A stretch of 64,000 nt of DNA from Schmidtea nova. Its lineage: Eukaryota. The stretch spans positions 363,320,001 to 363,384,000 of the forward strand of contig CM097882.1 in NCBI GenBank assembly GCA_044892505.1, in the 5' to 3' direction. The notes beneath the pieces were generated by a model that had not been told where the DNA came from, did no database searches, and worked only from the letters and a program-made list of their open reading frames with translations. Each line of letters starts with the position of its first letter. The stretch's first letter is position 1. Shown here in pieces: positions 18,358 through 63,071 of the stretch. Position numbers and translations under genes: made by a program.

Positions 18358-21300
18358 TAATAAATAAGTATTCGATTTCAGTAGTTTTGATATACATAAC
18401 AATTTATAGAAACGGAACTAAACGTTAAGCAAAAGATGGAGGAATAAATTTCATTTTTATATGGTACTTAAACATAAAATAATTCAAGAAATCCAAACTC
18501 AATTTTTATTTTGGATATTAAAATGATTAACATAAATTATAGTTTAGTATTTTCTATTAATTTAATTTAATTTTAAAATCTTACTTTCCAATAAAAAAAA
18601 TGCACAATCTTGTAATTCCATTTCTAATGCCCTCACCAATGGAAATTTAGATGATCCTTCCAGTAAATGTAAAATAATAGGCTAAAAAATAAAAAAAATA
18701 ATAATAAAATTTTAATTTATAAATAAAAACGCTTTAAATAAGTAATTAATTTGTATATATTTTAAGTCACCAGAAAGAGAATTTAATATGAAATTAAAAA
18801 TTTATAAATTTGTCAAATGTATTTTATAAAGTTTGATATTTTTCTTTTTACAGACAAAATATTAGTGATTTTATTTTCAAAAAATAAACTTTCGACAGAG
18901 CCATTTTCAACACTAAAATATTGATCAAAATTAATTTATATTTGGATTTTATCATTAATATATGGTTGATATATGAAAATCCATTGTTAATGGTACAGTA
19001 TATTTTGTAGACAAAACTATTTTTATTGTATTTTCAATAAAAAAATTATTTTACGAAAGCAATAACCAAAATATTAAGTGATAAACAAGAAATGATTATA
19101 GGGGTCATTGCATGATTACGTCCCGCTCAAGGGTGGGTGAGTGTTTTCCTTGAAAACGTGACGTCACCTCTAGTTGTATTTTATAATGGACCGGTTAGAC
19201 CAAAAGAGTTCTAATTGCAACAATCTTCCTCTGCTACAGTGATGCTGATATTTTGAATGGACAACTATGACTAACAAAGCTGCTACATCAAGCTCCCTGC
19301 ATAGCAGGCTAGAGGACAGATTAATACAATGTATCATATTTTTAAACATTTTAAAACTGATCTTGCTTAAGCATTTTAAATGAAGTGCTCGAAATAATTT
19401 TAAAATACATAAGTTCATTATACTTGTTGTTTGAATCATTAAATTTTTTTAATCTGTTTCAACTGTCCGTAAATTTCTATTTTGAATGGATTATGGTACC
19501 ACTAGGCTATCCCCATTTCATGAAAAATAAAATGACGTCAAGATTGGGGGGTGCGTGGGTCTAGGGAAATGTGACCAAGAGTGACAGGGCGGGTGGGTGG
19601 GTCAAAATGGTCATTTTTGGCGTGACGTAATTATGTAATGACCCCATGTAAGTAATAAAAATTATTTTATAAATCAATGAAATCTTGATAAGGTTGAAAT
19701 AAAGTTATATCAAGACAGTAGGGGAAGTTAACCCCCAAAGTTTACATAATAACTTCATGTATTATGCAATATCTATAATTACTTATTGATTACGTAATCA
19801 ATCACATAGCATTTTATAACGTAACTGACAATGTAATTAACTTGTTATTAAATATTATGTGATGTAATAATTAGGATGCATTGATGGAAAACCTTCTGTA
19901 ATTAGTTTTTTTCGATGAGGTAAACTGTCTTTAGTGGAACTATTGATTCACAATTCTTTTTAAATACTTTTCTGAGTTTTGACGACTTAAGATGTTTAGC
20001 AGTAAAATTTAATAGCATGATTGATGTCAAACATGTCAAGCATGATTTCAACTTTGTTTACAAACATAGCTCTTTTTTGTTGAAAACATCAGTTTAAACT
20101 CTTAAGTTATGAGGACATTTCTGAGTAAAAAAGTAAAGAAAAATATACCCATGTGAAATTTGAGATGCGTTGATTAGGAAATGGTGATTATAGGGATATG
20201 CTTATACAACAAGAATATTAATAACTGTGGCATCTCTAGGATTTTTGAAAACAACTAGAAATTGAACAATCAGGTTACGAGTTCGATGGAATCCGCTTTG
20301 ATGAAACAAATTTTGAGTTATAAAAATAACTGTAACACCTTTATGCCTAACTATTTTCGTAAATAAATTATTAAAGTCTTTTTCTATGATCACTTCCTGT
20401 TATAAATCATCAATAATGGTTATATTCCATTGTTGTAATCTAGATGACCAATTTTTATCAAAACCCTTTATCGTTTTCATTTTAATCTTACAAAATTGAT
20501 TTTGAGTCATTTCATACTCATCATCAGCTACACTATGCCAACAAATCTTGTTAAATTTTGACTTGAACATTTTTGAAAAATATTAATTATAAATAACACT
20601 ATAAAAAGAATTATAAAAAAATAATATTAAATAAAATAATAGGATATTATCGGTTTTAAAATAGCGCTTAAAATTTAAATATTTTCTTTATTTAAACAAA
20701 TTTCAAAATGGCTGTAAAATTTAAAAACATTTGGTGCCAAAAATTTTAAAATTAAAACAAAATAGCCTTGAAATTGATTATGTAAAAACTTTATCATCAA
20801 TTACACAATAATGTCATAATTATATTCGTGAAAAAAGGCCAAGAAATGTTACATATTAATTCGAAAATTGTTAGTTTTATGTGAAATGTGATTATTACAT
20901 AACGGTTTGCGAGACCACGTGTGCTATGTAAAATCAGAGTGATCACGTAACATATATACGGGAGTGTAATGTACAGAAAAGTTGGGCAATTTTGTTAACA
21001 ATTTTGTTATTTTTATATTTTGTTGTCAACGCCGTCGTTATTATGGTCGGTACCCTCGCGGTCACCGAGGACCCCCCTTTTGTGTTTTGCTTGCAAGCAA
21101 ATAATTATTTTTTATAATTTTAATTCGAAATTTGAATTTGGCTTACTATGGCAAATGCTATAGTAAGCCAAATTGACAAAGAAATAAAAATCGATATTTT
21201 AAATGGTATAAAAAATTGTATGCAAACCAAAGAAAACTGCATCTTTCACTTATTTTCGAGGCTATTCTAATTAAGCAAATAAATCAAACGATTTCGAATT

Positions 21301-24300: not shown

Positions 24301-27300
24301 AAAGTTTTAAATATCTGTTGAATATTCGAACTAAAGTACAATCTAATTTAAATAAACTATTGAATAAATGTGTCAATTTATTTAAATAAATAAAAGAACA
24401 CCATTTTTTAAAATATATTTATTATTATAGTATAAAATGGTGATTCTTTGGTAGCAGTATTAAGAATTAAATAATTATTTTAAAATATTTATATAAACAC
24501 CTCACATCCCCTTTTTTGAAAATCTTTCATCTTTTCTATATTTCTTATTATGATTTTGTCTTCTTGATTTTCTAACAAATAGCCTCTTTCGTCAATTTTC
24601 TTTATTATTCTATATGGACCTTCAAATCTTTCTTAGTCTTTATTTCGAATCTCACGCTTTCTTAATACAGTATCTCCTATATTACATTTTCTTATTGTCT
24701 TGATCTCTGCCGCGTTTGTTACTTCCGTCTCTTTGCTCTTTATCTTTCTTTCTTATATGTATTGAAGTACTGCTATACCATTTTGATCTGTTAATTCTCC
24801 TTCCAAAAACGAATTCTGCCGGACTTACCCCAATTGTTTTCTGTATTGTCGCATTTAAGGTATATTCAATTTCCAGTAATATCTCTGCCATACTTTCCTT
24901 GCTTTGTTCTTCTAATGACGCGTTAATATAATCTCTTTGATTGTTCCAAACTTTTTTTCTATTAATCAATTGGTGTTATTTTGATATGGGCTTGAAAACA
25001 CTATTTCGATTCCTGTTGACTTTGCCAATTCTTTTAAACCGTTTGATTCAAAACATTTCCCAGTCTACTGCAGTTTTTTTGGTGCTCCAAATCTTAATAT
25101 CCATTTGTTTAGAAAATTTTTCAATATTGTTTTTTCATCTTGTTTAGCTATTGCAGACAGAGAAATGTATTTACTGTAATGGTCAATGATTCAACATATG
25201 CATCTTTCTCTATTGATTGTTTCTTTCATTGGTTCACGTATATCCATATAGATCAGCGGTCTCAAACACGCGGACCGCGACGTTGTCTTTTGCGGCCCGA
25301 AACGAAGCAAATGGATTTTGTAATTTAACCAAACTTATATAACAATTAAATTTTAATTTTAAATTTTAATTTTTCTAATAACATTAATTTAGAATTTTAA
25401 TGTAAGGCGGCAGCATAATGATTTCTAGAATGTTAAAATAAAATCTAAAAATTCATAACTTTAGAAGAAAAGCGTTAAAAAAAATTTTAAGTTTTCCTTT
25501 CTTTACTACTAGATTTATGTGTTTTAATCATTGTAAAAAGATTTTAAGTAGTAAGGCCCCTGAGGTTATGCTTAGTAACATTTCCATTATTAGTCATAAT
25601 ATAAGACGTTATTTCCAAAATTATATTCTATTTAAAACTGTAATATTTAAACAAATATTAATCTAAATATTGTCACTTGCTTTTAGTCACACACGGCCCG
25701 CGTTATACTTTGAGTTTAAGATCCCTGATATAGATCATCTCAAATGGTTCCGTTCTTATGGTTGTTTTAGTTTCTTCTTTTGTCTTTATTGTTAGTGTCT
25801 TCGTTTTCTGATACGCAATACAGTTTTCAATTACTGATATTACTTCTTTTACCAAATCTTCCATGTAAAAATTTCGTTGGATATAGTTTTTTATTTTTTG
25901 TGTTCTTGAATGCGTCTCCTTGATCATATTTCGCCTTTTCGATTTTGGTATTCATATTTTTCATCTCTTTTATGATGAATCTTCCGTTCTTGAACTTTTC
26001 TATTTCATTCTTTATATCTTTTCTATCATCATTATTGTTTTGCCACTTATTAACGCTATCTTCCGTTGTTACTGTTAATAACCTTGTTTTTACTCTTCCG
26101 CTTTCCTGTTCATCATGTTCCATCATGTATTGCATGCATGTTGCGCACGTTTTCTTTGACAGGATATCCACATTTCCATGATTAATGCCTTTCCTATATT
26201 CCATCTTTATATCCAGGCTGTTTAAATGATTGATCCAAGTTTGAAATTGTGATGTAATTGGCTTCGTCTTTGTCAACATAAAGGTAATAACCTTATAATC
26301 TGTTCGCAATAAAATCATTTTCATATAAATAATGATTAAAATGTTTTCAGAAGTAATATATTTCCAGTAATTCTTTTCTTGTTATGGGGTAGCTTTTTTC
26401 ATGGCTACTCATTGCATGAGATCCGTAAGCAATAACGCGTTCATGTCCAAAATCATCCTTTTGATAATTGTCGGTGATTTATATATTCCTCTATTGAAAT
26501 ATGTTTGGATTAATAAATATGAACCGGATAAAATAGTACAAATAGTAGCGGATAATCATATGTATTTACCTATTTCAACCTAATGTATAAACAATATACA
26601 AATTAAAATTCGTGACGGTAATGGAAAATTTATGAATTTTTCAAAATATTAAAAATCACCTTTGACACTACATTCCCATATTTTGTATGGAAGCAGTATT
26701 GTTGAGTTTTGTCTAAACAAGCATGAAATATAATAAAAAGCACAAAAACAAGGAGCAAATCAATAAAAATACGAAGATTCAAAAATTAATAATTAGAGTA
26801 CAAATTTAATAAAAAATTTAATATTTAAAATTTGGCGGGAGAAACTAGTATAGGTGAATGATAAGTCAAATCCAAATATAATAATATAATATAATAATAT
26901 AATAATCTATTAATAATCTAAATAATTAATCTAATTTTATTTCAAAAATTTTAAGAAATAAAATTAATTAAAATATTAATTATTTAATATAAAACCTGAG
27001 CTATTGGGAAACCCGAGCCAATGGAAAACCTGAGTAGTATAGAAACCCGAGTCATCAACAAAGTTGTCTAATAACCATGGAAAATTTGATGATTTAAAAG
27101 AAGCGCGGGTGAAAAACAAGTAACCTATTTACTCCAACAAAATTAATTATTAAAAAACCCGGGGGAAAAAGGAAACTCCGAGTGATAAGGTAAACCTGAA
27201 TCTAAGATGACTTAATTAGTTTTATTTAGATAAGATACCGAAGACTGTGAAATATCATCAGTCAATTTATTCAATTTTGCGTACAAGAAAGAGCATTTCC

Positions 27301-29829
27301 CATTAGGACATTTACTACAGCGCAGTGATAATGCAGACGAAAAGTGTAAATTATTGTGCAAGATCAAATAAAAGTTATTGTGTTGGGTGATCTGATTAAT
27401 TTTAAATAAAAAGAACAAGGAGTAGGATATTATTACTGACTTATTACTGATATTAAACCCAATAGTATAATATCAAAATTGAGAGAAGAAACAATACATA
27501 TATATACAAGGAAAATATTAAAACTATTTTTAAATTATGATACTAAATTAATGATACTAAATTCACATGTTTTAATTAAATTTGATATGAAACTTCTGAA
27601 GAGAATAAAACCTCAATTAAAGGGTAAAATCTTTAACCGTGTGTTCATTATTACAGCTCGATTTCAAGGATCAACCGAAATTTACTCCCATCATTATTTT
27701 CTAAAGTTGCAATACTAAAATAACAATTAGAAGATGCAAAATTAATGATCAATCGAGTTTGTGTTGAAACATCGGTATTAACTGGATATGAAATCGGACT
27801 TTATATGAAACATGCAATTTATCCTATGAAAACCAAGGAAATTGAACAGTTACTGTTTGGTCAGGAAGTATCATCATTCTACAAAAACAAATATCTAGAG
27901 ATAGAATAATGCCTTAATTTATTCTTGTACTTTTTCAAAGTGAAAAACCTTACAGTGGTTCATATACAACTTCGTGTTCAAAATTAAATCATTTTAATGC
28001 TATTTCATTATCTTTATCAAAACATACTATGTATACTCATGATTTCAAAAATAATAATTTCTGTGCTACACATATGCAAAGTATAGTAAGGAATATGGGG
28101 TATTGAGATCGAAACCTGAATTATTGTATAACTCTTGCAAAACGTCAGATTTCGATTTGAATCAAACTAAATTACTACAGAACGATTATCAAGTTTTTTA
28201 AAACTGTTGAAAATCCAGCGCATAGAATAATATATTGAGCTTTTGAAAATAAAATACGGATAACTTCTATTATCCAGCTCTATTAGTTAGTAAACTGCAA
28301 ACAATATTATTGATCCTGTACATTATTATTCTAAAAAATGTAGAAACCGTTTATTGCATTTTAAGCTCAAATTTAGGGATGAAATATGATAATTTTTCTT
28401 TAATATCTCGGACAAATTCTTTCTCGGCTGTAGTAATAATAACTGTGTCCCTTTTCCGTCATACTTTTCATTAGAGAATCAGTTAAGTCTCTTCCTGCTA
28501 AATCAATTTTATCAATAACATAAGGAAAAGTAATTCCTTCATATATAAGAACTGTATAAGTTACATCGGAATCTACAAAATATCAGTTGTTCTTCAGAAA
28601 CATTGAAAGACAACACAGCTTGAATAGAAACATAGATAGTTGACGCATTGACCGTTAGAAACATAATTCGAGTCATTTTTTCTGTTGGAATTTAGACTGA
28701 TTGGAGTTTCAGTCAATGACATTGTGTGTTCTTCAAGAACGACTCTCAATTCACTGTAGAAAGAATTGTGCCATATCCTTTCTATATCATCCCAAATGGT
28801 AACGATTACGTGTTCTATTGAATATTTCAAAATAAAAATACCACTCGTCAATTGAGCTTAATTAATGGCATTGTTGACTTTCTGTCACGTACCAACTTTA
28901 ACACATTGATGACGAAGTCAATAAACGATAGAAAGGAACATGACCCATAGAGCATCATCTCCAGTAAAACCAGCTTTGCATTTCCAATAAGTAAAGCGGA
29001 AACATCTTCATCTGCCAATTTATTCAAAATCTTGAGAGGTCAATAAAACCCGACGTTCACATGTAACCTTCATATGTGCAAATCAAAAATACACAAATGC
29101 GAATTGACCACAATAACTAAACCAATTGTATATAATAAACATTTAATTATTTAAAATGTCAAGACTAATTATTATGTCACACTAGGGGTTCTTTATCTGA
29201 CGTGACATCCTACTACTGTTAACAATAAAAAAAATTACATGGGAACATCAGATGTGCTCAAATGCCCAAACTTGTCCTGGAACTTTCCGGTCTCAACAGC
29301 TCTCTTAGTTTAAATTATATTCATTAAATTATTATTCACATATTTTATCACTAACGAGTTTTATGAGTCTCAAGACATTAATATAACTACTATTTAAAAC
29401 TTTTTATTAATTTTAATAACTTTTCTTATAAATCTTGGTCAATTATTTGCTTACATGATAAAATAAAATAGATGTAATATAATTTATAAGTACAAATTAA
29501 ATATGAAAAGAATTTTTAATTAAAAATATAATTAGTAAATTTTTTTAAATTGAGGCTAAAGATATCGAAAATAACAATATTTGTATAAAATTTACAAAAA
29601 ATTCAGTAAAATATTATTAATAACAATATTTCTAATCAGCTTATTACCTGGTCTTTACCATATATCTCGCCATTTAAAATATATCTTATCAAAAATATTG
29701 ATGCTGGATGCGCGGCTCCTGATAATACGATTTTCAGCGGCTAAATAAATCTCCATTAGTAACTTTTTATCTCCATAATGATAATATGCAATAAATTACC
29801 CTTTTAGGATCAGCTACAAAATTGTTCAT
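4924..29829 (-). CDS. MDH1: Cytosolic malate dehydrogenase (MDH1)-like protein, divergent; 6 exons: 29800-29829, 29648-29740, 18585-18681, 15353-15651, 10434-10727, 4924-5130; 339 aa
   Basis: Exons found by eye translate to [10 protein letters not shown] / [18 protein letters not shown] / [15 protein letters not shown] / ..[14 protein letters not shown] / LAAELGV..IIWGNHS..WNGT / TDWINM..FFSFPV..; all five introns are GT..AG and phases match (0,0,1,0,0); no internal stops. Confidence 0.88.
5673..6936 (-). mobile_element. Mariner (DD34D) transposon in MDH1-like intron 5
   Basis: About 30-bp TIRs CGTGGTGCGC..AATAAGT.GTGAGACTAA, TA target duplication at 5671-72 and 6937-38. Confidence 0.93.
5766..6779 (-). 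pseudogene. Mariner transposase, frameshifted
   Basis: [11 protein letters not shown] start, FVPRFL (WVPHEL-like), [23 protein letters not shown]; split over several frames. Confidence 0.9.
8915..9109. mobile_element. hAT-type MITE
   Basis: TIRs CAATGGCGTAGCTAGGG / CCCTAGCCACGCCTCTG; 8-bp flanks TGCCATAA / TGTCATAA (7 of 8 match). Confidence 0.75.
10434..10727 (-). CDS. MDH1: MDH1-like exon 5 (catalytic His motif WGNHS)
   Basis: [29 protein letters not shown]; TAG acceptor, GTAAGT donor. Confidence 0.9.
10960..11960 (+). repeat. Dispersed repeat family, copy 2, with internal GAATAATCTGAA minisatellite
   Basis: Palindrome at 11243-11280; distal block CACCCCGAGTGTCCC..GACTCTCTCGGG shared with about 21625-21680; contains an N gap. 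Confidence 0.75.
13590..13890 (-). mobile_element. Degraded mariner transposase fragment
   Basis: [24 protein letters not shown] resembles [23 protein letters not shown] of the 5.7-6.9 kb element. Confidence 0.55.
13950..14760 (-). mobile_element. Possible Gypsy integrase remnant
   Basis: Weak degenerate matches (EYVLLFG, LLAFREK, GPY/F-like KDHLR..RWYKY) amid many stops. Confidence 0.3.
14880..15240. repeat. Two-copy tandem duplication, period about 217 bp
   Basis: GATCTTAAAAAGA(C/T)CCTGATCA(A/C)TCCAAT(G/A)CGAAATTCTTT occurs near 14939 and 15156. Confidence 0.7.
15353..15651 (-). CDS. MDH1: MDH1-like exon 4
   Basis: Contains [31 protein letters not shown]; CTAG acceptor, CAG|GTTTAA donor. 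Confidence 0.9.
17517..17805. mobile_element. hAT (Charlie-like) MITE in MDH1-like intron 3
   Basis: TIRs CAGGAGTGGGCAAAC / GTTTGCCCATCCCTG; perfect 8-bp TSD CTCTAAAA. Confidence 0.9.
18308..18355. repeat. (TA)n microsatellite
   Basis: Pure TA run. Confidence 0.95.
18585..18681 (-). CDS. MDH1: MDH1-like exon 3
   Basis: [32 protein letters not shown]; TAG acceptor, GTAAGA donor, phase 1. Confidence 0.88.
19101..19645. mobile_element. Non-autonomous TIR element (PIF/Harbinger-like)
   Basis: 22-bp TIRs GGGGTCATTGCATGATTACGTC / GACGTAATTATGTAATGACCCC; TSD not clean. Confidence 0.65.
20190..20580 (-). pseudogene. Maverick packaging ATPase fragment in MDH1-like intron 2
   Basis: [36 protein letters not shown], homologous to 43.9-44.25 kb. 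Confidence 0.85.
21020..21720 (+). repeat. Dispersed repeat family, copy 3
   Basis: Palindrome 21136-21173 is the exact reverse complement of 312-349; distal block shared with copy 2. Confidence 0.8.
23190..23970 (+). pseudogene. Decayed ORF of unknown origin (about 260 codons)
   Basis: Less AT-rich than its flanks; one frame reads as protein-like with scattered stops (..[34 protein letters not shown]..). Confidence 0.3.
24113..24376 (-). mobile_element. Possible Penelope-like retroelement ORF N-terminal remnant
   Basis: [31 protein letters not shown] resembles the PLE N-terminal FL..C..P.F..K pattern; flanked by short direct repeats. Confidence 0.4.
24540..26465 (-). mobile_element. Gypsy LTR-retrotransposon remnant (RNase H to integrase)
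   Basis: [68 protein letters not shown]. Confidence 0.85.
25254..25727. mobile_element. hAT MITE nested in the Gypsy integrase remnant
   Basis: TIRs CAGCGGTCTCAAAC / GTTTAAGATCCCTG; perfect 8-bp TSD ATATAGAT. Confidence 0.88.
26466..28305 (+). mobile_element. Heavily deleted Maverick remnant (penton, major capsid and protease fragments)
   Basis: 26466-26680 [26 protein letters not shown] (penton); 27722-28190 [21 protein letters not shown] (MCP); about 28265-28305 [13 protein letters not shown] (protease); same order as in the intact copy. Confidence 0.8.
28310..29018 (-). pseudogene. Actin pseudogene (about the N-terminal 240 codons, no introns seen)
   Basis: (L)[68 protein letters not shown]; frameshifts, stops and ATG changed to TTG. 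Confidence 0.9.
29648..29740 (-). CDS. MDH1: MDH1-like exon 2 (Rossmann beta-A/alpha-B)
   Basis: [31 protein letters not shown] resembles MDH1 [31 protein letters not shown]; TAG acceptor, CAG|GT donor. Confidence 0.85.
29800..29829 (-). CDS. MDH1: MDH1-like exon 1 ([10 protein letters not shown])
   Basis: ATG, 10 codons, then GTAATT donor and a 59-nt intron ending TTTAG in phase 0 with exon 2; short exon, so less certain. Confidence 0.6.
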
Positions 29830-36869: not shown

Positions 36870-37409
36870 CTATAATAATTAAAAATGCATAAATAATTTT
36901 CAAAATCATATATTAATTATTTATAAAAAATATGACTATTAAATATCAAAATAATCAATATTTATATTAATCAAATATTAAATTAATAAAAACTATCATT
37001 TAACCTATTAAGTAATATTTTAATAAGCGTAACATATTAAATTATTAAGTAATATATTAAAATATTAACAAAAGAATAATAAAAACCTATAAGAACATAT
37101 TAATTACCTATAAAAAATATTAGATACTTATAATAANNNNNNNNNNNNNNNNNNNNNNNNNNNNNNNNNNNNNNNNNNNNNNNNNNNNNNNNNNNNNNNN
37201 NNNNNNNNNNNNNNNNNNNNNNNNNNNNNNNNNNNNNNNNNNNNNNNNNNNNNNNNNNNNNNNNNNNNNNNNNNNNNNNNNNNNNTTATTATTAACTATA
37301 ATATATTTATTACTTATATTCAAAATAAATATTATTATACAAAGCATGATTATTATTATATAAAAGAATACGATAAATTAAAAACTTTAAAAATAAAATA
37401 AAAACATAC

Positions 37410-37990
37410 ATTCGCTTCCTTTAGAAACATTAATCATATCATTCGGAGCAAAATTTGCAGCTTTATAATTTGAAGCGGCAGCTTTATAATTTGAAGAGGT
37501 AGCTTTAAAATTGGAAATCTGCAGCAAAATATGCCGCAAAATCATTAAAAAGTCCTGCTGCAAAACAGGTATTATTGAAAGCTACGGCATTATTTACATC
37601 AAAATTGGAAGCTGTATCAGAATAATTATTTCTTGCTAAAATCATAAATTTAAATAACAATAAATAAATAAATAATTTTACCGTTGATTTCAGAGATATT
37701 TGCGACATTAAAGTTATTGAAATTAATTGGATCGACATTTAATCTTGCTAAACCAATAAATAAATAAAGTTACTTAAATAAATTAATTTACCATTTATTT
37801 CCGATTCATTAAATTTTCTTTGGCCTGCATTATTTTTATTATTATTTGCAATATTATTATTATTATTTGCAATATTAATTCCTAAATTCAAAATAAATAA
37901 AAAATATGAATAAAAATTAATAATAAATTTACTATTTACTCCATAGAATTTTCCAGCGACACGTCGTTGATTATTAATATTTGTATTCAT
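37410..37990 (-). CDS. Four-exon Asn-rich micro-exon unit, copy A (37933-37990, 37792-37881, 37682-37747, and 37635 to either 37505 or 37410)
   Basis: Three GT-AG introns of 51, 44 and 46 nt, all phase 1, give a continuous frame; TAA at 37505, or continuation to a T|GTATGT donor at 37410 with a 1-nt frameshift. Confidence 0.65.
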
Positions 37991-38109
37991 ATTTGAAAAT
38001 TGATTTAAAATTGATTTAAAATTTCTGTTGAATTATTGAGATTAAAAGTGACGAAAACATGAAAGTATAGTGTATATAAAGTAAAATAATTTCAAGTTTT
38101 ATTAACCAT

Positions 38110-48300: not shown

Positions 48301-49671
48301 TATCTATATAACTACTGCCGCTTAGCCTACTTATCTCAGAAAATTTTGTAAGGACAAAACTTATATATTCTATTTTGGAGATTGTCCAGTTGCTCCCCTT
48401 TTCATTAATTTGTATAATTTTCTCATTTAAATTAGTGATACCTTCTTCAATAAAGGTATCACTCCACTCTCTGGCAGAATTTGAGATTACAAAAGATTGT
48501 AATTCATCATCCTTCTCAAATTCCACCTTGAGACAAAATTGAATTTTGCATGATTTTAATTTATATATATATATGAATTTAATTTTTCTAATAATATATC
48601 CGGTACAGAGACCGTTTTAATATTAAATTTAATACATCCATTTTAATGATTACATGGGTATCGTTCAAGTCGGAATTAACTTCAACAATACCCATACCAA
48701 TTTGATTATTATTTATAATATTATTAATTTGAGAAAATTCATCATCATTGACGATGGTTATTTCATCATCATCATCAATGATGGATATAATATCTATATT
48801 GCTACTTTTATTATAAATATTAACATCTTCATNNNNNNNNNNNNNNNNNNNNNNNNNNNNNNNNNNNNNNNNNNNNNNNNNNNNNNNNNNNNNNNNNNNN
48901 NNNNNNNNNNNNNNNNNNNNNNNNNNNNNNNNNNNNNNNNNNNNNNNNNNNNNNNNNNNNNNNNNNNNNNNNNNNNNNNNNNNNNNNNNNNNNNNNNNNN
49001 NNNNNNNNNNNNNNNNNNNNNNNNNNNNNNNNNNNNNNNNNNNNNNNNNNNNNNNNNNNNNNNNNNNNNNNNNNNNNNNNNNNNNNNNNNNNNNNNNNNN
49101 NNNNNNNNNNNNNNNNNNACTGATGTCGATTATGATTATTTTTTTAGGAACTGAATCCATTATTGTAGTGTTTTTTCGTTTATTATTTTGTAAATTATTA
49201 TTTAGATTAGTTGTAGTATTTTGTAAATTATTATTATTAATATTTAGATTAGTTGTATTATTTTGTAAATTATTATTTAGATTAGTTGTATTATTTTGTA
49301 AATTATTATTATTATTATTTAGATTAGTTTTATTATTTTGAAAATTATTATTTAGATTATTTGTATTAGGAATATTTGATAAATTATTATTTAGATTATT
49401 TGTATTATTATTATTATTATTATTATTATTGTTGGTATTAGAAATATAATTTTTATATAAAGAATTAAAAAGTGATTTTTTCGACGGCATATACTGTGAA
49501 AGATGTGACCTATGAAAGATAAAAAATTCCTTATACGATTTCACCTCAATAACTTTACATTTTGGGCAGAGGAGGTGGGTGACACCATTATATTTATAGG
49601 AATAGTACTTTTCCATAATGACATGACAATCATTATGAAAACTACTATAAAAAAAATTTGATAAATTGAGC
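45367..49671 (-). pseudogene. pPolB copy B, full length but frameshifted
   Basis: CPKC, NQIGMG, VIYADFE, DHDH..CSECN, KGIFPY, DINNFYGWAL, WETDS (dead motif C), FLRPKCY; contains an N gap. Confidence 0.92.
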
Positions 49672-49869
49672 CTGAATGTAATGAAAAAAATTAAAATCAA
49701 AGGCTACAATTAAAAAAAAAATAAAAAATTAATCTTTAACTTAATAGATAATTTCATAAAAAATAACCTTTTTTTAATTGAAGTATTTATATTTAAAATA
49801 ATAGGTAATTGTTTAAAAAAAACATTTACATATTATATTAAATATAAACTTTTAATATTTATTCATAAT

Positions 49870-50150
49870 AATCAAAGTTCTGGGGGGAGGGGGTCTTTGT
49901 TCTTTTTTCCACCTACGCAATGAGTCATAATGTCTTTGTTCCCGGCTCCACACATCTACCTACTTAAGCCTTTGTTGATTTCATATTATTGTGTGACTCA
50001 TGATTGCAACAAAGATGCAAAAGAAATGCATGATTCTGATTGGTTCAGTGAATAAAGACATGTTATGCATACTTGAATCTGATTGGTTGATTGTGTGTTT
50101 CATTTTCTTGGTATATATACAATGAACATTTCACAATAATTTATAATTTA
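49870..50150 (+). promoter_or_regulatory. Putative promoter with TGASTCA sites, reverse CCAAT boxes and TATA
   Basis: TGAGTCA near 49921, TGACTCA near 49994, CTGATTGG near 50036 and 50079, TATATATAC near 50112, ATG at 50153. Confidence 0.5.
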
Positions 50151-50152
50151 CA

Positions 50153-50810
50153 ATGTGTCTTAAAGCAACGTTAGTGAAATATGGTAAAGTTTCAAATTTT
50201 TTCATTTTTCATTTTTATACAATTTATTTTTAGATAAATTGATGGCCGTACTGTTCGGCAAAATGGAGGAGATGTTTCCAAGCCTGATGTCAAAATTGAT
50301 ATATGCTGCTACAGAGATGCTCGTAATCAAAATACTATCAATCACCGGGATTGATATCAATAAAATATTGTTGGACCACCTGGCCAACTTGGACATGAAT
50401 CTTCCATACATGGCGGAACACATCATTTGTGCCTACCAATGCGGGCCGGGCACTGTACAGAAAAAATTGAAAAATACCGCATTTGGGTATTGAGAAAGGT
50501 TCTCAAAAATTTCGTGATGGAGTCTCGTAAAGAAAAAGAAGAAACCGAAGAGAAAGAAGAATGGCCAAACTGCATTCCCGATGAATCGATGGATTGCATC
50601 AAGCCAAATACTACAGATTCTCCGGCTCATTCTCCTTCAGAATGCTCAACTCTCGATGGGCCATATCTGCTGGAAGGCGATCAGTTGCAACATTGTGATC
50701 AATCGCCAGAATGCAATTAATCGCCAGAATGCAATCAATTTCCAGAATTCAATCAATTGCCAGAATCGCCAGAATCTCCCAATTGCGATGCATGTCATCG
50801 TAAAGTTGAT
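50153..50810 (+). CDS. Unknown spliced accessory gene (exon 50153-50183, 50-nt intron, ORF to 50493; possible frameshifted continuation to about 50810)
   Basis: TATG|GTAAAG..TTTAG|AT phase-1 intron joins in frame to ORF 50239-50493; an overlapping frame has an acidic/Pro region and 18-bp CAATCGCCAGAATGCAAT-type repeats. Confidence 0.45.
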
Positions 50811-51372
50811 GATGATATGGACATGGCAGAATAAATATTTTTATGTTATTATTATTATTTTAGTATTGTAAATGTTGTCATTTTTATATATATTGTCATT
50901 TTTTTTGTTATTATTTAATAAATGTATATTAATATATGTCTTCGTTTTTATTTTATATGGTAAAATAAGATATACAAGTAAATAAATTTTAATTAAATTT
51001 TTATGCAATTAAGTATTTAAGTTATAAAGTATTTTTAAGTAAAATAAGATATTAAATTAAATTTGTATATAAGTTTTAAAGTAAATAAGTCCACAAGTTT
51101 TAAAGTAATTAAGTCTTAAAGTAAATATGTTTCTGAGCTATGTTTTAAATTATTTACATAACTAAAATATGATAAAAAACACGATAAATAAAAATGATAA
51201 ATTAATAAATAAATTAATTAAACACATATGCATACAACAAAGAAACTTATGTAACAAAGACATACATGTATGCATGCACGTTACAAAGATATGCTTATCA
51301 TGTGCAGTTTGAATACATTACTCACCACTATAAATACAAATACATGTTTTAGATATTGTCACAATTTCAAAA

Positions 51373-51789
51373 ATGCCAGCACGTAAATCAACTTATGATA
51401 TCAGTGAAGAAAGTAAAATCAATAATGAAGTCAAACCAGTTCAAATGTATTACGATTACAAAATTAAATTCTTGGTACATGAAATACCGTTTCGATTGTC
51501 GTATCCAGTGAAATTAACAAAGTCATTGTATGACAATTTAGCTGCAAATCAAAGTAAAAGAGATGATGTTGCACTAAATAAAATTTTATTTAAAATCAAT
51601 AACAATTTAAGTTGCAACGAAACTATATGAATCAATAACCGAAAAACACGTTTCCATGATGCTCTCCAATCTATCGAATACAAGGATCAAGAAAATTGGT
51701 TTATTACCAAAATCATTCAGGCATATAAAATCGATACAAAGGATGTTATAACTCCAATTTGGAGAATTGACAGTGCGCGATATGCATAA
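51373..51789 (+). pseudogene. Homolog of the 53801-54244 protein (putative SSB-like), one in-frame stop
   Basis: PVQMYYDY..LSCNETI*INN..FHDA.QS.EY..ENWFI..QAYKID..PIWRI.SAR; TATAAATA upstream. Confidence 0.75.
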
Positions 51790-53800
51790 ATGTTATTTTA
51801 TAAAGGTTATTTAATAAATGTTAGTAATATACATATTAGTTTTTGATTGTTCTATTTTTTATAAGGTTTTTATAAAATTTTCATAAGTTATATAAGTTNN
51901 NNNNNNNNNNNNNNNNNNNNNNNNNNNNNNNNNNNNNNNNNNNNNNNNNNNNNNNNNNNNNNNNNNNNNNNNNNNNNNNNNNNNNNNNNNNNNNNNNNNN
52001 NNNNNNNNNNNNNNNNNNNNNNNNNNNNNNNNNNNNNNNNNNNNNNCAATAAGAAACTTTGCGATTTCTTAGGAATTAAGTGTAGACAATAGATTTCATT
52101 CTAAATCTTGTTTTAAAGAAACCGGATTTTCGAGGCTAAAGGGAATTCTAATTGATTACTGATTGTTTTTCATAAAATTTACTTTAAAATTAAAAACTTC
52201 TTGATGATTTTCTTAATTTGAGCACTTGGATATTTTCGTCAAAAGCTGAAATTTTGTTATCTGTTTTAATTAAAAATTTCAAAATTATTTAATAACTGAT
52301 AATGTTGCATTCATTTTTTAAAAAAAATAAAATTTAATATATAAATAAGTCTATATCATTTTTTTGAATTTCAACTTGAACTTCGTTGATAATTAATATG
52401 AATTAATAATTTAATTAATAATTTTTAATATTTGAAAAAATTATTTCATTTAATTATACTGAATATTTTGCATTCTTTTTGTTTAAACATATTTTTAAAT
52501 ATTTATCATTTCAATGTTATTTTTTTATAATTATNNNNNNNNNNNNNNNNNNNNNNNNNNNNNNNNNNNNNNNNNNNNNNNNNNNNNNNNNNNNNNNNNN
52601 NNNNNNNNNNNNNNNNNNNNNNNNNNNNNNNNNNNNNNNNNNNNNNNNNNNNNNNNNNNNNNNNNNNNNNNNNNNNNNNNNNNNNNNNNNNNNNNNNNNN
52701 NNNNNNNNNNNNNNNNNNNNNNNNNNNNNNNNNNNNNNNNNNNNNNNNNNNNNNNNNNNNNNNNNNNNNNNNNNNNNNNNNNNNNNNNNNNNNNNNNNNN
52801 NNNNNNNNNNNNNNNNNNNNNNNNNNNNNNNNNNNNNNNNNNNNNNNNNNNNNNNNNNNNNNNNNNNNNNNNNNNNNNNNNNNNNNNNNNNNNNNNNNNN
52901 NNNNNNNNNNNNNNNNNNNNNNNNNNNNNNNNNNNNNNNNNNNNNNNNNNNNNNNNNNNNNNNNNNNNNNNNNNNNNNNNNTAATTGCTCTTAAAGAGAA
53001 AATAATAAAAAAAATTAATCAATGCTCCCTGAGAGCAGTAAATTAATAATAACAATAATAAATTGATATTCAATTATTAACATAAATAAATTCACAAAAA
53101 ATTGACAATAACAACATTCCACAAATTAAATCAGATTTCTACATAATTTTCACAAAATAAATGTAATAAAATAATAATTAAGTTATCAAAATAAATATCA
53201 AAATCTTATTTTTCATTTTTTACATCAGATAAAGATCGTTATGGTTAAATATTCCCATAAGTTAAACAAATGAATAAAAACAAAAAAAATAAAATATACA
53301 ATTATTGTAATTTAACACAGAAAAAATTTCTTAATCGATACACAGACATCAACCCTTGATGTATAAGGATCAACCCTTAGTAGGCAGTTATGTGCCCTCT
53401 GACTCATCGTTATTACGTAATTATTACGTAATTTATTACATAACAAAGGAATATTAGGTAATCGATGCCCCCCCACCCCCACCCCCCCCTTTTTTTTTTA
53501 CACACAGACGATGAGTCATAAAAATTTAAATTTGAATTTTCAAAGGTCAAATAAGGTCAAACCTTCAAACAAGGGTATCATTCGAAAGGTCTTGGAGAGG
53601 TCTATCCAATGGTCATACCTTCGAAGGTGTATGGAGGGTCCTTAACCTTGAAAGGGTCAAAAACCTTTTCAAAAATTCAAAAACATAAAAAACATAAAAT
53701 TTTAAAAACATTTTTTTTTTTTTCAAAAACACAAAGTGAGAATTAATCAACATTTATTAATAAATACACATATATATATATGACAACAATGTTATTCCAA

Positions 53801-54244
53801 CTATGCAATTCTTGCGCTTTTTATCTTCCAAATTGGAGACATTGATTCTTTTTGATCGATTTTATATCCTTGGATGGATATATCAATAAACCAATTTTCA
53901 TTATCCGTATATTCAACTGATTGAAATGCATCATGAAATTCAGTGTTCCTGTTGTTGATGAATATAGTTTCATTGCAAGATAATTTCTTGTTGATTTTCG
54001 TCAACACTTTATTGATTGCAACAACATCTTCTTTATAAATCTGACCAATCAAGTTGGAATATTGCGAAGTCGAAAGCTTTACCGGATTTGGGACCTTGAA
54101 AGAGATTTCGTTTACCAAGAAAAACATTTGGTAATCGTGAAACATCTGAACCGGTCGTAAATCAAATTTGTTTTGAGTTGATTTGTTATCGTTCCTAACT
54201 GGTTTCATTTTAATTGGACTCAATTTACTGAAAAGATTTTGCAT
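53801..54244 (-). CDS. Conserved 147-aa accessory protein, possibly an OB-fold ssDNA-binding protein
   Basis: Intact ORF with CCAAT and TATAAATA upstream and a homolog at 51373; the SSB call is inference from the C-terminal FIDISIQGYK..SPIWKI pattern. Confidence 0.7.
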   Translation of the reverse strand: MQNLFSKLSPIKMKPVRNDNKSTQNKFDLRPVQMFHDYQMFFLVNEISFKVPNPVKLSTSQYSNLIGQIYKEDVVAINKVLTKINKKLSCNETIFINNRNTEFHDAFQSVEYTDNENWFIDISIQGYKIDQKESMSPIWKIKSARIA

Positions 54245-54301
54245 TTTATGAACAATTCTATTTTTGTTTTCTTATTTATACTCGTCATCGTCTGTGTGCA
54301 G

Positions 54302-54313
54302 CCAATCAGATTC
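54302..54313 (-). promoter_or_regulatory. CCAAT-box motif CCAATCAGATTC
   Basis: 58 bp upstream of ATG 54244, followed on the sense strand by TATAAATA. Confidence 0.6.
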
Positions 54314-54471
54314 TTGCACATGTCTTGTAAATCAATTGCACATGTCTTGCTAATCAATTGGCTATGTATTAATAATTGACTTTGTATACATGTTGATGAT
54401 TATCTACTGCAATTTCTTTCTATATATGTTGTAAGTTATTTACATATCTATCGCAATTTTATTGTCTATCC

Positions 54472-54513
<42 letters not shown>

Positions 54514-54700
54514 TACTAAAATTATTTTCTATTATAATTTTCAATAAATATTCAACATCAACATTTTATAAAAATTAATTTTAACTACAAAACATCTTTC
54601 ATAACTCGTTTTAAGAAAATAAATACTTTATAAAATTTTGTACACAGATATCTTGCATGTGTGTGTGTGTGTGTGTTTGATACAAATAAAAGTACGCATT

Positions 54701-58400: not shown

Positions 58401-58873
58401 TACAAAACTAATATATTCAATTTTGTTAATTACCCAATTTGAACCCTTTTCATTCATTTGGGTTATTTTTTCATTAAGAAGTGTAATACCTTCATCAATG
58501 AAAGTATTACTCCAAAGCCGGGCAGAATTTGAGATGACGAATGATTGATATTCATTATCCTTCTCAAATTCTACCTTTATACAAAATTGAATTTTAACTG
58601 ATTGCATTTTTATAACAACATCATTTAATTTATTTAAAAGGATAGTCGGAACAGATAAAGATTTAAAGTTGAAACGCGAGACATCCATCTTTATAATTAT
58701 ATGCGATTTATTTAAATCAGATTCAATCTCTACAAGACCAGATCCAACCTGATTAATACAAGGTATTATTTCTTCATCAGACGAAATGACAATTTCCTCA
58801 TCACTGATGACAATAACTTCTTCGTCATCACTGATTTCAACTATTTCAATTAATTTGTTGGGAACGCAGTCCA

Positions 58874-58940
<67 letters not shown>

Positions 58941-58969
58941 TAATAATTTGGGAACGCAGTCCACATTAA

Positions 58970-59000
<31 letters not shown>

Positions 59001-59533
59001 TAATAATTTGGGAACGCAGTCCACATTAATATTATTATTATTATTATTATTATTTAATAATTTGGGAACGCAGTCCACATTAATATTATTATTATTATTA
59101 TTACTTAATAATTTGGGAACGCAGTCCACATTATCGGTCATTGTTTCCTTATTGTTTGTGGTTATAATTAATTTTGTGGGAACACAATCCACATTATCAT
59201 TTAGTTTTCTTTTATTTATTTTGATGGGATCGCAGTCCACATTAGTTTTTGATGAAATATATTCTTTTGGTAAATTTTGTTGTATATTAGTTTGTAAAAC
59301 ATTTTTTGTGATATTAATTGAGTTAAAAAGATTCTTTTTTGATGGTTTAAATTGAGATAGATGATTTTTATGATTATTGTAAAATTCTGTATAACCTATT
59401 GATTCTTCAGTTTTACATGTGGGACATATTAGGTGGGTGACACTGTTATATTTTAGCGAATAGTACTTTTCCATAACTACATGACAGTTATTATTATGAA
59501 AAGTACTATTGCAATATGCAGTATAAAGACGGC
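55428..59533 (-). CDS. Protein-primed DNA polymerase B (pPolB) with endonuclease VII-like insert, intact; 5' exon(s) upstream of the acceptor at 59534
   Basis: 1373-codon open frame: VIYADFE, HCYLC..DHDH..CSKCN, FHNLRGYD, KGVFPY, YLKLDV, DINNLYGWAL, KLLNNSLYGK, AGDTDS, FLRPKCY, KAKG. Confidence 0.96.
58850..59250 (-). repeat. Coding repeat in pPolB: NVDCVP-type units separated by poly-Asn (AAT)n
   Basis: Six NVDC(V/D)P units with Asn runs lengthening toward the C-terminal side. Confidence 0.9.
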
Positions 59534-60123
59534 CTGAATTAAAATACAATAATAAAAATATTTATCAAAATATTTTAAAATAACAATTATTTTATTCTAT
59601 TACTAAACTAATATTGAATTNNNNNNNNNNNNNNNNNNNNNNNNNNNNNNNNNNNNNNNNNNNNNNNNNNNNNNNNNNNNNNNNNNNNNNNNNNNNNNNN
59701 NNNNNNNNNNNNNNNNNNNNNNNNNNNNNNNNNNNNNNNNNNNNNNNNNNNNNNNNNNNNNNNNNNNNNNNNNNNNNNNNNNNNNNNNNNNNNNNNNNNN
59801 NNNNNNNNNNNNNNNNNNNNNNNNNNNNNNNNNNNNNNNNNNNNNNNNNNNNNNNNNNNNNNNNNNNNNNNNNNNNNNNNNNNNNNNNNNNNNNNNNNNN
59901 NNNNNNNNNNNNNNNNNNNNNNNNNNNNNNNNNNNNNNNNNNNNNNNNNNNNNNNNNNNNNNNNNNNNNNNNNNNNNNNNNNNNNNNNNNNNNNNNNNNN
60001 NNNNNNNNNNNNNNNNNNNNNNNNNNNNNNTTACTAATAAGATATCTTAAATTTAAATTATAAAAACATTAACACTTAATAAAAACTTAAAATTTAATAA
60101 AAATTTATATAAATAAATAAAAA

Positions 60124-60592
60124 TTACTTACATTTTTGTCTACCATTAAATCGCTCATCAAACACATCATTGATTTCTGCTCCATTTTCATATTTATTTT
60201 CTACATTTTCTTGCTTATTTACAAGATTATTTTCTTCATTTTGGTGATTATTTTCTGCTATAAAATTAATTGTAAATTAATAAAGAAAATATCAAATATG
60301 AAATTATTACCATCTATATCCACATTTAGTTTCTCATTTCGACTTGCAGCATAGAACTGATTTGAGAATTCGACATTTCTAACTAAATTGTAAATAATAA
60401 TAATTTATTATTTTTAATAATTTAAAATTTTTTACCATTTGCATTTTTATTTTCGATCATAGGGACGTTGACGACATTCATTGTAGAATTAAAGTTAACT
60501 GAAAAATTATATATTAATCTAATTAATAAAATAGATTAAAAATTACCATTTTTCTTCATCATATTTTTGATATCTCTTGAAAGGTTCTCCAT
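60124..60592 (-). CDS. Four-exon Asn-rich micro-exon unit, copy C (60547-60592, 60436-60498, 60311-60382, and 60257 to either 60124 or 60132)
   Basis: Three phase-1 GT-AG introns of 48, 53 and 53 nt; continuous frame MENLSRDIK..FNGRQK; ends at TAA 60124 or at a T|GTAAGT donor at 60132. Confidence 0.7.
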
Positions 60593-60719
60593 TTTTCTTT
60601 GTAAAATAATAATTTTAAAATGTTTTTAAATGATTTGTTTTAATTGTGATGAAATAATGAAAACATATAGTATATATATCACGTTTATTACAAACTTTAT
60701 TACAAACTTTATTCAAGAG

Positions 60720-60731
60720 CCAATCAGATTC
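60720..60731 (-). promoter_or_regulatory. CCAAT-box motif CCAATCAGATTC
   Basis: 128 bp upstream of ATG 60592, with TATATATA in between. Confidence 0.6.
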
Positions 60732-61399: not shown

Positions 61400-61783
61400 T
61401 TATACTTTTAACATAGAATTAAGCCATGCAAGGCAATATTGTCCACATGTAATTGTTAATGGATGCTGATACCGAATTTTATTATATACAATCGGTTTAC
61501 CTAATGTTTGCAGTTTACTAACTAATAAACCGGGATAATAACATCCGAAGGGATCGAATGCATATACATTGCTTGGTTTCACATATACAGCAATCCAATG
61601 TTCTCCGCCTAGAGTAGATGATTGAGTATTGACGACTATGGCTTGGTTGACATCTAAATAAGGGATTTTATCTAATGGATAGACTCCAATAAATTGATTT
61701 CCTAACAACTGTTTTCTAATTCGATTAACCTGAATAGAACTATATAAATAAATATATTTGATAAATAATAAAACTTACTCCAT
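61400..61783 (-). CDS. Adenain-like cysteine protease, intact; exons 61779-61783 and 61400-61739; 114 aa
   Basis: 39-nt intron ATGGA|GTAAGT..TAG|T; His (GEHW), Asp (FDPFG), Gln/Cys (YQH..TCGQYC). Confidence 0.92.
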
Positions 61784-61850: not shown

Positions 61851-63071
61851 TCAAACTAATACTGTCCGATTAGCAGTAATTTGAATTTCATTTTCAAAAA
61901 CTCCATATATTATTACATGTACTGGTTCTTCAATGGCTTTAGCAAACTTGATATCCAATCTCAAATTTCCATTTTGAGGTAATTGACTTTGATTTAAATC
62001 GAAATCCGGAGCCAAAACAAATGTAAAGAATGGATATTTGTTTTTAAAATCAGCAAGATTTATACCACAATTTAAATTCTTATCTAAATATCCCATATTT
62101 CTGACCATCGATTGCATATATGTAGTACAATAATTATCATTTTCGAAATCTTGAGTATATGTTTCTCGATAATCAGTGTTTTTCGATAAAGATAGAGAAG
62201 TTACATTGAAATGTTTGAATTTCGAACTTGATGCAGTATATGATCCATTGTATTGAGTTTCACTTTGAAATGCGACCAGAATAAAATTTGGCATTCTTCG
62301 ATCTCCAAATATTTGTTCCTTGTAGAAAGATGATGCACCTTTACCAATAGCAAATTGTACTATTTCTTTGGTTTTCATTGGATAAATAGCGTGTTTTGAG
62401 TTAAGTCCAACTTGATGTCCAGCTAATACAGAGGGTTCAACGCGAACGCGACGAATCATTAACTTTGCATCAACTAATTGACATTTTGGTGCACCGTTTT
62501 TTGAATAAAGTGATAGTGAAGAATCAGATCGCTTCAGTCTGATGTGAACATTGACACCTGGTAATAAATATTTCGGTTGATCCATGAAATCCAGTTGTAG
62601 AGATGAACACATTGTAAATAGCTTTGAGCCTTTGATCCACGCTTTTCTCTCGTCAGAATCTCCATATCCCATTGGAGTAAGACAAGTTTCTTTAGTATCA
62701 CCATTATAATTTAAAATAGTTTCGATTATTGCCTTGTGTGCATATGTATTGTTTCCACCTTCAATTTTGATATTATTAAAACCAAGAATCGCATCCTTGA
62801 ATAGAGTATGAAACATAAAATTGTTTGGTATAACATCATCAGTTGCAGACAAATCTTTTTTATCGGCATTTACAACTTTTATTTGAACTGTTAGTAAAGT
62901 ATCATTCAAATCCAAATATTCAGATTGAGATACGTTAATGTAAAATTCCACATCATTTCTACCGTCTGTAATAGAATTCATGGGAAATACTTCTTCAAAT
63001 GCACCATATTCAATGACTGCTTGAGGAGATGGTCGGTCGAAAAGACATAATTCAGATTTACCACAAATCAT
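61851..63071 (-). CDS. Major capsid protein (double jelly-roll), intact, 406 aa
   Basis: Polinton MCP-type motifs EFYI..YLDL.DT.L, QPKYLLPGV..HIRL, P.FILVAF, LRLDIKF; size and position between the protease and penton. Confidence 0.93.
   Translation of the reverse strand: MICGKSELCLFDRPSPQAVIEYGAFEEVFPMNSITDGRNDVEFYINVSQSEYLDLNDTLLTVQIKVVNADKKDLSATDDVIPNNFMFHTLFKDAILGFNNIKIEGGNNTYAHKAIIETILNYNGDTKETCLTPMGYGDSDERKAWIKGSKLFTMCSSLQLDFMDQPKYLLPGVNVHIRLKRSDSSLSLYSKNGAPKCQLVDAKLMIRRVRVEPSVLAGHQVGLNSKHAIYPMKTKEIVQFAIGKGASSFYKEQIFGDRRMPNFILVAFQSETQYNGSYTASSSKFKHFNVTSLSLSKNTDYRETYTQDFENDNYCTTYMQSMVRNMGYLDKNLNCGINLADFKNKYPFFTFVLAPDFDLNQSQLPQNGNLRLDIKFAKAIEEPVHVIIYGVFENEIQITANRTVLV

Follow-up and report, generated by a model that had tools for sequence, protein, structure and literature searches.

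The core genes of Mavericks have been treated as intronless and annotated by calling open reading frames (ORFs). According to the available text of a study of vertebrate elements, intact Mavericks carry no introns, a result said there to agree with Kapitonov and Jurka 2006 (PMC8097293), and the accessible part of a report on nematode Mavericks describes intronless core genes, with introns in cargo genes only (10.1101/2022.07.12.499685). Intronless core genes are a property described for the group rather than a formal criterion for it, and the element analysed here, copy C, is predicted to lack that property. As the accessible texts present them (PMC8097293, 10.1101/2022.07.12.499685, 10.1101/2023.08.22.554363), vertebrate and nematode Mavericks have in common with copy C (15.9 kb) the TIRs, a 6-bp TSD, pPolB, an rve integrase, a packaging ATPase, an adenovirus-like protease and a double jelly-roll capsid. 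Unlike them, copy C has conserved predicted GT-AG introns in its pPolB, integrase and protease genes, and this well-supported gene structure, in a true Maverick, departs from the published intronless picture.

The polymerase itself resembles the pPolB plan TP-vOTU-EXO-PALM, in that a long N-terminal region precedes the exonuclease and palm and an endonuclease insert is present; the portion of that paper open to us mentions neither an N-terminal Cys/His domain nor a spliced leader (PMC11161782), whereas copy C is predicted to have both. In adenovirus, a related virus, the polymerase takes its first residues from a tiny exon upstream. The available text on E2B describes a polymerase and terminal protein made from spliced transcripts, with one promoter serving several genes by alternative splicing (PMC9499273); the copy C leader, in contrast, is dedicated, comprises 102 codons in several exons and splits a conserved Cys. 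Maverick-Polinton-like elements of dinoflagellates harbour introners, intron-forming sequences that, in the part of the report available, are mobile and mostly acquired after integration (10.1101/2025.03.18.643946). The introns of copy C are instead plain and AT-rich, stand at fixed sites across families and are shared by whole bursts of copies; those seen differ in sequence between sites. In the literature that we searched, no Maverick core gene is described as carrying conserved spliceosomal introns, although Repbase, Dfam, subscription journals and supplements lay outside the scope of the search and may hold such annotations. No such case appears in the accessible texts of 10.1101/2023.08.22.554363, PMC8502044, PMC11296320, PMC12220804, PMC5718144, PMC6431247, PMC5803895, 10.64898/2026.07.28.741278 and 10.64898/2025.12.11.693146.

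We analysed a window of 64,000 nucleotides from Schmidtea nova (contig CM097882.1), a host with a genome of 1.25 Gb that is ~73% AT. Here, very probably, four small exons are spliced by the host spliceosome onto the pPolB exon of a young Maverick/Polinton family, adding a 102-residue leader and the first Cys of a predicted zinc site. The element concerned, copy C, is a complete Maverick, and its 15,855 bp extend from 53379 to 5,233 nt past the window end; decayed copies A and B also lie in the window. Its TIRs pair over 1057 bp at 98% and a further 296 bp at 96% between the ends. The features that place it in the window are the following.

53373..53378, plus strand: 6-bp TSD, with an identical hexamer at the right end
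53379..54635, no strand: left TIR of copy C, holding a 147-aa gene
61851..63071, minus strand: double jelly-roll capsid protein gene, from its model and Foldseek

The frames of copy C are open, those of the capsid and ATPase being uninterrupted. In Foldseek the capsid model (pLDDT 92.8) matched capsids of iridovirus, PBCV-1 and mavirus, with E 1e-16 for the best of them, and a candidate frame for the minor capsid protein extends from beyond the window to 63453. The right end, also beyond the window, carries an intron-split integrase and the packaging ATPase (Pox_A32, E 1.4e-6). The copy C pPolB gave no DNA_pol_B_2 match; it is 70% identical over 255 aa to a piece of copy B that passes the DNA_pol_B_2 cut-off. 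Exonuclease and palm motifs can be read in it by eye. Sequence searches of the PDB with pPolB and the capsid returned nothing meaningful. Matches to the leader were 99-100% identical in 40/40 cases scored, and integrase exon 1 was identical at all 150 places scored, which amounts to at least 150 near-identical copies of the element; judged by this identity, the copy C family is young. Since integrase exon 1 is identical in 150/150, the intron-bearing form is what spreads.

Other content of the element and the window may be recorded here. The 147-aa gene stands behind an ATTGG box in each copy C TIR (window 53801-54330 and L101:4170-4680) and is therefore present twice. A TBP-like gene lies in the element (L101:2854-3222; PF00352, E 1.1e-9), its end apparently frameshifted in this copy. 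Fragments of more distant Mavericks occupy window 19869-20576 and 26464-28268 (ATPase 71%, capsid ~40% identical), host lactate/malate dehydrogenase exons (Ldh_1_N, Ldh_1_C) lie within 10400-15700, and mariner/Tc1, IS1595-like and reverse-transcriptase fragments occur elsewhere.

The initial annotation had described four tiny exons upstream of pPolB, separated by short GT-AG introns of phase 1, with a donor CAAAAAT|GTAAGT and a TTCAG acceptor at 59534 joining the last of them to the polymerase. This anatomy was borne out except for exon 4. On the minus strand the exons, each of them open, measure 46, 63, 72 and 126 nt; the introns have lengths of 48, 53, 53 and 598 nt, and every one is GT-AG and of phase 1.

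60547..60592, minus strand: leader exon 1, coding part from the ATG, 46 nt
60499..60546, minus strand: intron 1, 48 nt, GT-AG, phase 1
60436..60498, minus strand: leader exon 2, 63 nt
60383..60435, minus strand: intron 2, 53 nt, phase 1
60311..60382, minus strand: leader exon 3, 72 nt
60258..60310, minus strand: intron 3, 53 nt, phase 1
60132..60257, minus strand: leader exon 4, 126 nt, with AAA T before the donor
59534..60131, minus strand: intron 4, 598 nt, phase 1, splitting the first Cys codon
55428..59533, minus strand: main pPolB exon, 1367 codons open, with an HNH/Endonuclease VII-like insert
59322..59533, minus strand: pPolB N-terminal Cys/His domain, comprising a predicted CCHC site, whose first Cys would come from the junction, and after it C-x2-C...H-x2-H

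The acceptor TTCAG ends at 59534 and the polymerase exon begins at 59533. The leader exons have a GC content of 26-33% and its short introns 6-11%; the 102 codons encode a low-complexity, Asn/Asp-rich sequence. A parser left free in phase, the last phase alone being forced, returned the exact copy C chain with a score of 55.9, a value reached by none of 500 dinucleotide shuffles (maximum 36.7). Among the 10 shuffles with at least four exons, 0/10 were all phase 1. In describing the exons the first reading was partly right: those of 63 and 72 nt are symmetric, but so is exon 4, and lengths of 46-126 nt make them small exons rather than true micro-exons.

Part of intron 4 (window 59621-60030) reads N, and the initial annotation had proposed a search for further exons there. 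Copy L001 has a TTA microsatellite in this intron and an AATAAA, and no further exon was found in it. Both exact motifs could be located in 18 of 20 fetched copies, where the last intron measured 466-866 nt. Extra exons reported by the parser in L016, L055, L080 and L095 were spurious artefacts and were dropped.

The same layout, with 3-5 leader exons, is kept by six families in the S. nova genome, although copies and families are related and counts of them overstate independence. Of the parsed family C copies, 15/17 show exactly 46/63/72/126, and a four-exon phase-1 chain was recovered in 16/19 copies of family A. The B-like group has three phase-1 exons in 26/34 loci, 25 of which end AAAT|GT; the other 8 comprise four with the promoter box out of range, two with a 1-nt offset, one without a chain and one with a spurious first exon. 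Family E has four leader exons, G three and D five (fully parsed in 2/5 D loci), and decayed family F has the same last donor. AAAT precedes that donor throughout families A-G. Copy A keeps the equivalent leader in decayed form:

37408..37991 (approximate), minus strand: four-exon leader of copy A, with a stop in exon 4 and another in the Cys/His domain

In copy B (window 49650-51900) the pPolB acceptor is kept and rearranged element sequence replaces the leader, which other B-like copies retain. The last leader intron of a family F copy (L087:640-1330) contains a nested gene on the opposite strand, with an ATTGG box of its own and two apparent introns.

These data bear on a further reading, in which the GT-AG segments arose by chance as AT-rich insertions or reflect the decay of dead copies. 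It could draw on the composition of the genome (~73% AT) and on the decayed copies A and B in the window. It is opposed by the 0/500 shuffles, by the same positions recurring in six families, by 150 identical integrase exons and by the completeness of copy C, with its open frames, TIRs and TSD. The conservation data already exclude such an explanation, and we give it almost no chance of being right.

Splicing of exon 4 to pPolB had been proposed to create a Cys codon that extends a Cys-rich N-terminus, and on this point the comparison agrees: the Cys starts the Cys-rich domain. The last acceptor AG stood at the same place in 90/99 loci; of the nine without it, four look like 1-nt offsets and the others are mutated, truncated or divergent. 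The two bases after the acceptor were GC in 67, GT in 22 and AC in 1 of the 90 loci, and never GA or GG, so that 89/90 fit a Cys codon with its wobble base. Among 1.84 billion proteins searched with a profile, 48 outside relatives of the Cys/His domain were identified. Where the domain matches the motif and the protein reaches far enough upstream, it bears Cys at the junction position in 35/35 cases; many of these homologues begin Met-x0-5-Cys. The domain thus appears, from sequence comparison, to start at a Cys that only splicing provides.

The ligand pattern predicted is C-x4-6-C-x4-H-x2-5-C, then C-x2-C...H-x2-H, and C7, H12, C16, C36, C39, H54 and H57 are invariant in 17 sequences. From this spacing we predict zinc binding, with the junction Cys as first ligand of the first site. 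A model of the domain built without the junction Cys (pLDDT 79.9) found in Foldseek only C2H2 finger matches that are not significant (best E 1.1, Kaiso fingers); its best VIA match, ARS2 (Z 3.3, rmsd 2.5 over 45 residues), is not significant either. The linker that follows the domain (window 58753-59240) contains a tandem VDCVP repeat, and its poly-Asn tracts differ from copy to copy. At L081:1455-1935 the Cys/His domain occurs once more, as a solitary exon-like copy with a different acceptor, no polymerase behind it and surroundings that do not look like a Maverick; it may be a fragment or a host-captured exon.

We considered whether the leader is instead a separate small gene, while a promoter within the long intron drives pPolB, whose first codon would be the VVMEKYY Met; the initial annotation had itself named such an independent start as the alternative. 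Reading through the exon 4 donor gives Cys-Lys-stop and closes a frame of 104 aa; an AATAAA is present in intron 4; and the Met at codon 19-20 of the main exon is invariant in 12 aligned copies, some database proteins being called from it. In family D the main exon has, in addition, a Met in frame as its codon 9. A start at the VVMEKYY Met would, however, skip the predicted first zinc site and drop a coding stretch that is conserved as protein: over the 18-19 codons from the acceptor to the first Met, pN/pS is 0.45 among 10 family representatives, and C7, N8, S9, C16 and H17 are invariant. The fixed acceptor with its GC/GT, the Cys upstream of the Met in 35/35 outside homologues and the donor AAAT|GT of families A-G argue against it too, and we judge two separate genes to be quite improbable.

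Flatworm spliced leaders may end in a terminal AUG. The 59534 acceptor might be a trans-splice site at which such a leader supplies the start codon; in the text available, an AUG is noted in some spliced leaders (PMC9851317). Yet an AUG placed directly at the acceptor opens a different frame, which stops after 18 codons and lacks the Cys, and the conserved donor and upstream exons would be left unexplained. Trans-splicing at this site is very improbable.

Searches of the genome returned no intron-free copy of the last junction, and for intron 2 the one match to an intron-free form was a single copy with an 18-nt remnant of the intron. No transcript-derived protein uniting leader and domain occurred among the 1 and 48 protein matches.

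Two other core genes, integrase and protease, have conserved predicted introns that are not in the initial annotation. The integrase is split by a 44-nt phase-1 intron inside its TDxG-KEF motif, with PF00665 (E 1.3e-7) on exon 1 and a chromo domain on exon 2, and has 674 homologues. Among the 120 homologues listed, 111 aligned to both halves, and exactly one residue lay between the halves in 111/111; at that junction the residue is Gly in all 115 sequences with the motif. Every element with an integrase match has the intron at the same site (11/11). The acceptor is followed there by GT in 6, GA in 4 and GG in 1, all of them Gly codons, whereas the pPolB junction has GC or GT alone and one AC. 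The integrase intron serves as an internal control, in which removal of the same style of intron is predicted to restore a well-known protein. The integrases that Pfam rve picked out in the genome were long-frame ones belonging to other elements and did not help here.

61779..61783, minus strand: protease exon 1, 5 coding nt, ATG GA
61740..61778, minus strand: protease intron, 39 nt, phase 2, with GT-AG ends; a stop lies in the read-through frame
61400..61739, minus strand: protease exon 2, Peptidase_C5, E 7e-6

The protease layout, in which a first exon of 5 nt precedes a short intron, recurs in 13/14 elements. In families B, C and D, a small accessory gene on the plus strand (L101:3450-3809, window 50170-50870) likewise begins with a short exon that is followed by a phase-1 intron.

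With GT...AG ends, conserved positions and a predicted restoration of frame on removal, the introns of the leader, integrase and protease fit U2-type spliceosomal introns. In this lineage, ORF calling misses the polymerase start, breaks off the integrase within its catalytic core and overlooks where the protease begins, and intact, actively spreading elements would consequently score as broken. If the predicted splicing is right, an integrating, capsid-encoding element can rely on the spliceosome of its host, in the manner of its adenovirus relatives.

How freely the leader itself varies can be judged from indels and substitutions. In 30 B-like copies, exonic indels were multiples of three in 25/34 cases vs 9/32 for intronic ones (Fisher p 0.0005), a statistic that is indicative, as the copies are related and AAT/TTA repeats favour 3-nt indels. 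Family A (7/9 exonic indels multiples of three) and family C (a single indel, not a multiple) add little; exon 2 of family A has eight lengths, every one a multiple of three. Uncorrected pN/pS in the B leader is 0.47, 0.67 and 0.71 for exons 1, 2 and 3. Comparison of families C and E gave identities of 5/18 in exon 2 and 13/40 in exon 4, against 14/23 residues in exon 3, where synonymous sites are near-saturated. Most leader residues thus appear weakly constrained, apart from a single patch of exon 3 that families C and E conserve, and the leader is probably a loosely constrained, disordered extension. With constraint so loose, the peptide may be less important than the introns.

The modular leader proposed at the outset holds over evolutionary time: exon number is three, four or five by family, and in family D exons 3 and 4, with the introns that precede them, form a tandem duplicate. 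As the leader introns are all phase 1, duplication or loss of an entire exon leaves the frame intact, and exon number drifted between 3 and 5 in this way. Outside relatives begin right before the Cys, so the leader looks added in this lineage; it may have originated as a tiny first exon like that of the protease, later extended by phase-1 block duplication. The compact, many-copy series in S. nova allows intron gain by tandem duplication to be followed.

Modularity as alternative splicing is a different matter, for exon skipping rests on frame arithmetic. It is conceivable, though we think it doubtful, that the gene is spliced as described and that, in addition, skipping of the symmetric exons or retention of the last intron serves as a switch that regulates replication. 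All internal leader exons are multiples of 3, and intron 4, which is long and full of repeats, varies in length; its retention would remove the polymerase. But exon symmetry follows automatically from the duplication of phase-1 blocks and needs no regulatory explanation. Under the reading that we prefer, one transcript from the putative ATTGG/TATA promoter would most likely be spliced constitutively, giving a product composed of the 102-residue leader, the two-site Cys/His domain, the low-complexity linker and the polymerase. A full polymerase with its predicted first zinc site intact would depend on the last splice; retention of intron 4 would yield a leader-only peptide of 104 residues, and could act as a switch.

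60720..60731, minus strand: ATTGG (reverse CCAAT) box, a predicted promoter element, from the conserved motif
60671..60678, minus strand: TATA-like run, from sequence

The ATTGG box lies 99-129 nt upstream of the leader ATG in families A, B, C, E and G, a variant box precedes it in family D, and the same box stands before other genes of the copy C element. Four sequencing runs of unrecorded type, kept as contigs and with transposase-adaptor tails, contained no splice joints and look like DNA libraries; their lack of joints is consequently uninformative about splicing, and the higher summed depth across the promoter is no sign of its activity. Of the expression scheme first proposed, then, the spliced leader is supported by the junction Cys, the conserved donor and acceptor and the comparison of six families, but neither exon skipping nor activity of the CCAAT/TATA promoter is, the latter having the conserved motif as its basis.

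Protein ends hint that such introns may be spread more widely. In 11/48 outside homologues the Cys/His domain ends with Gly, a run rich in F/I/L/Y and a stop, which resembles the signature of read-through into a phase-1 intron. We searched viral contigs and metagenome contigs and found no DNA of the outside homologues in them, so introns in other hosts are deduced from the protein ends. A larger picture is one that we hold only tentatively and consider unlikely to be right as a whole: an animal polintovirus lineage reaching beyond S. nova, with intron-rich core genes, in which host splicing would gate replication (a polymerase with the zinc site vs a leader-only peptide), introns would make viral transcripts resemble host mRNA and the leader would grow by duplication of phase-1 blocks. 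The case also raises the question of whether introns protect such elements from host silencing. In the available texts, HUSH targets intronless elements in human cells (PMC8770142) and planarian Polintons are piRNA targets (PMC8532177).

Ends of the read-through kind follow the Cys/His domain in P0019, P0020, P0021, P0026, P0028, P0029, P0031, P0033, P0038, P0039, P0046 and P0307, which belong to related elements; in P0307 two such runs flank a segment of 24 residues. A similar protein end lies in the exonuclease region of P0047.
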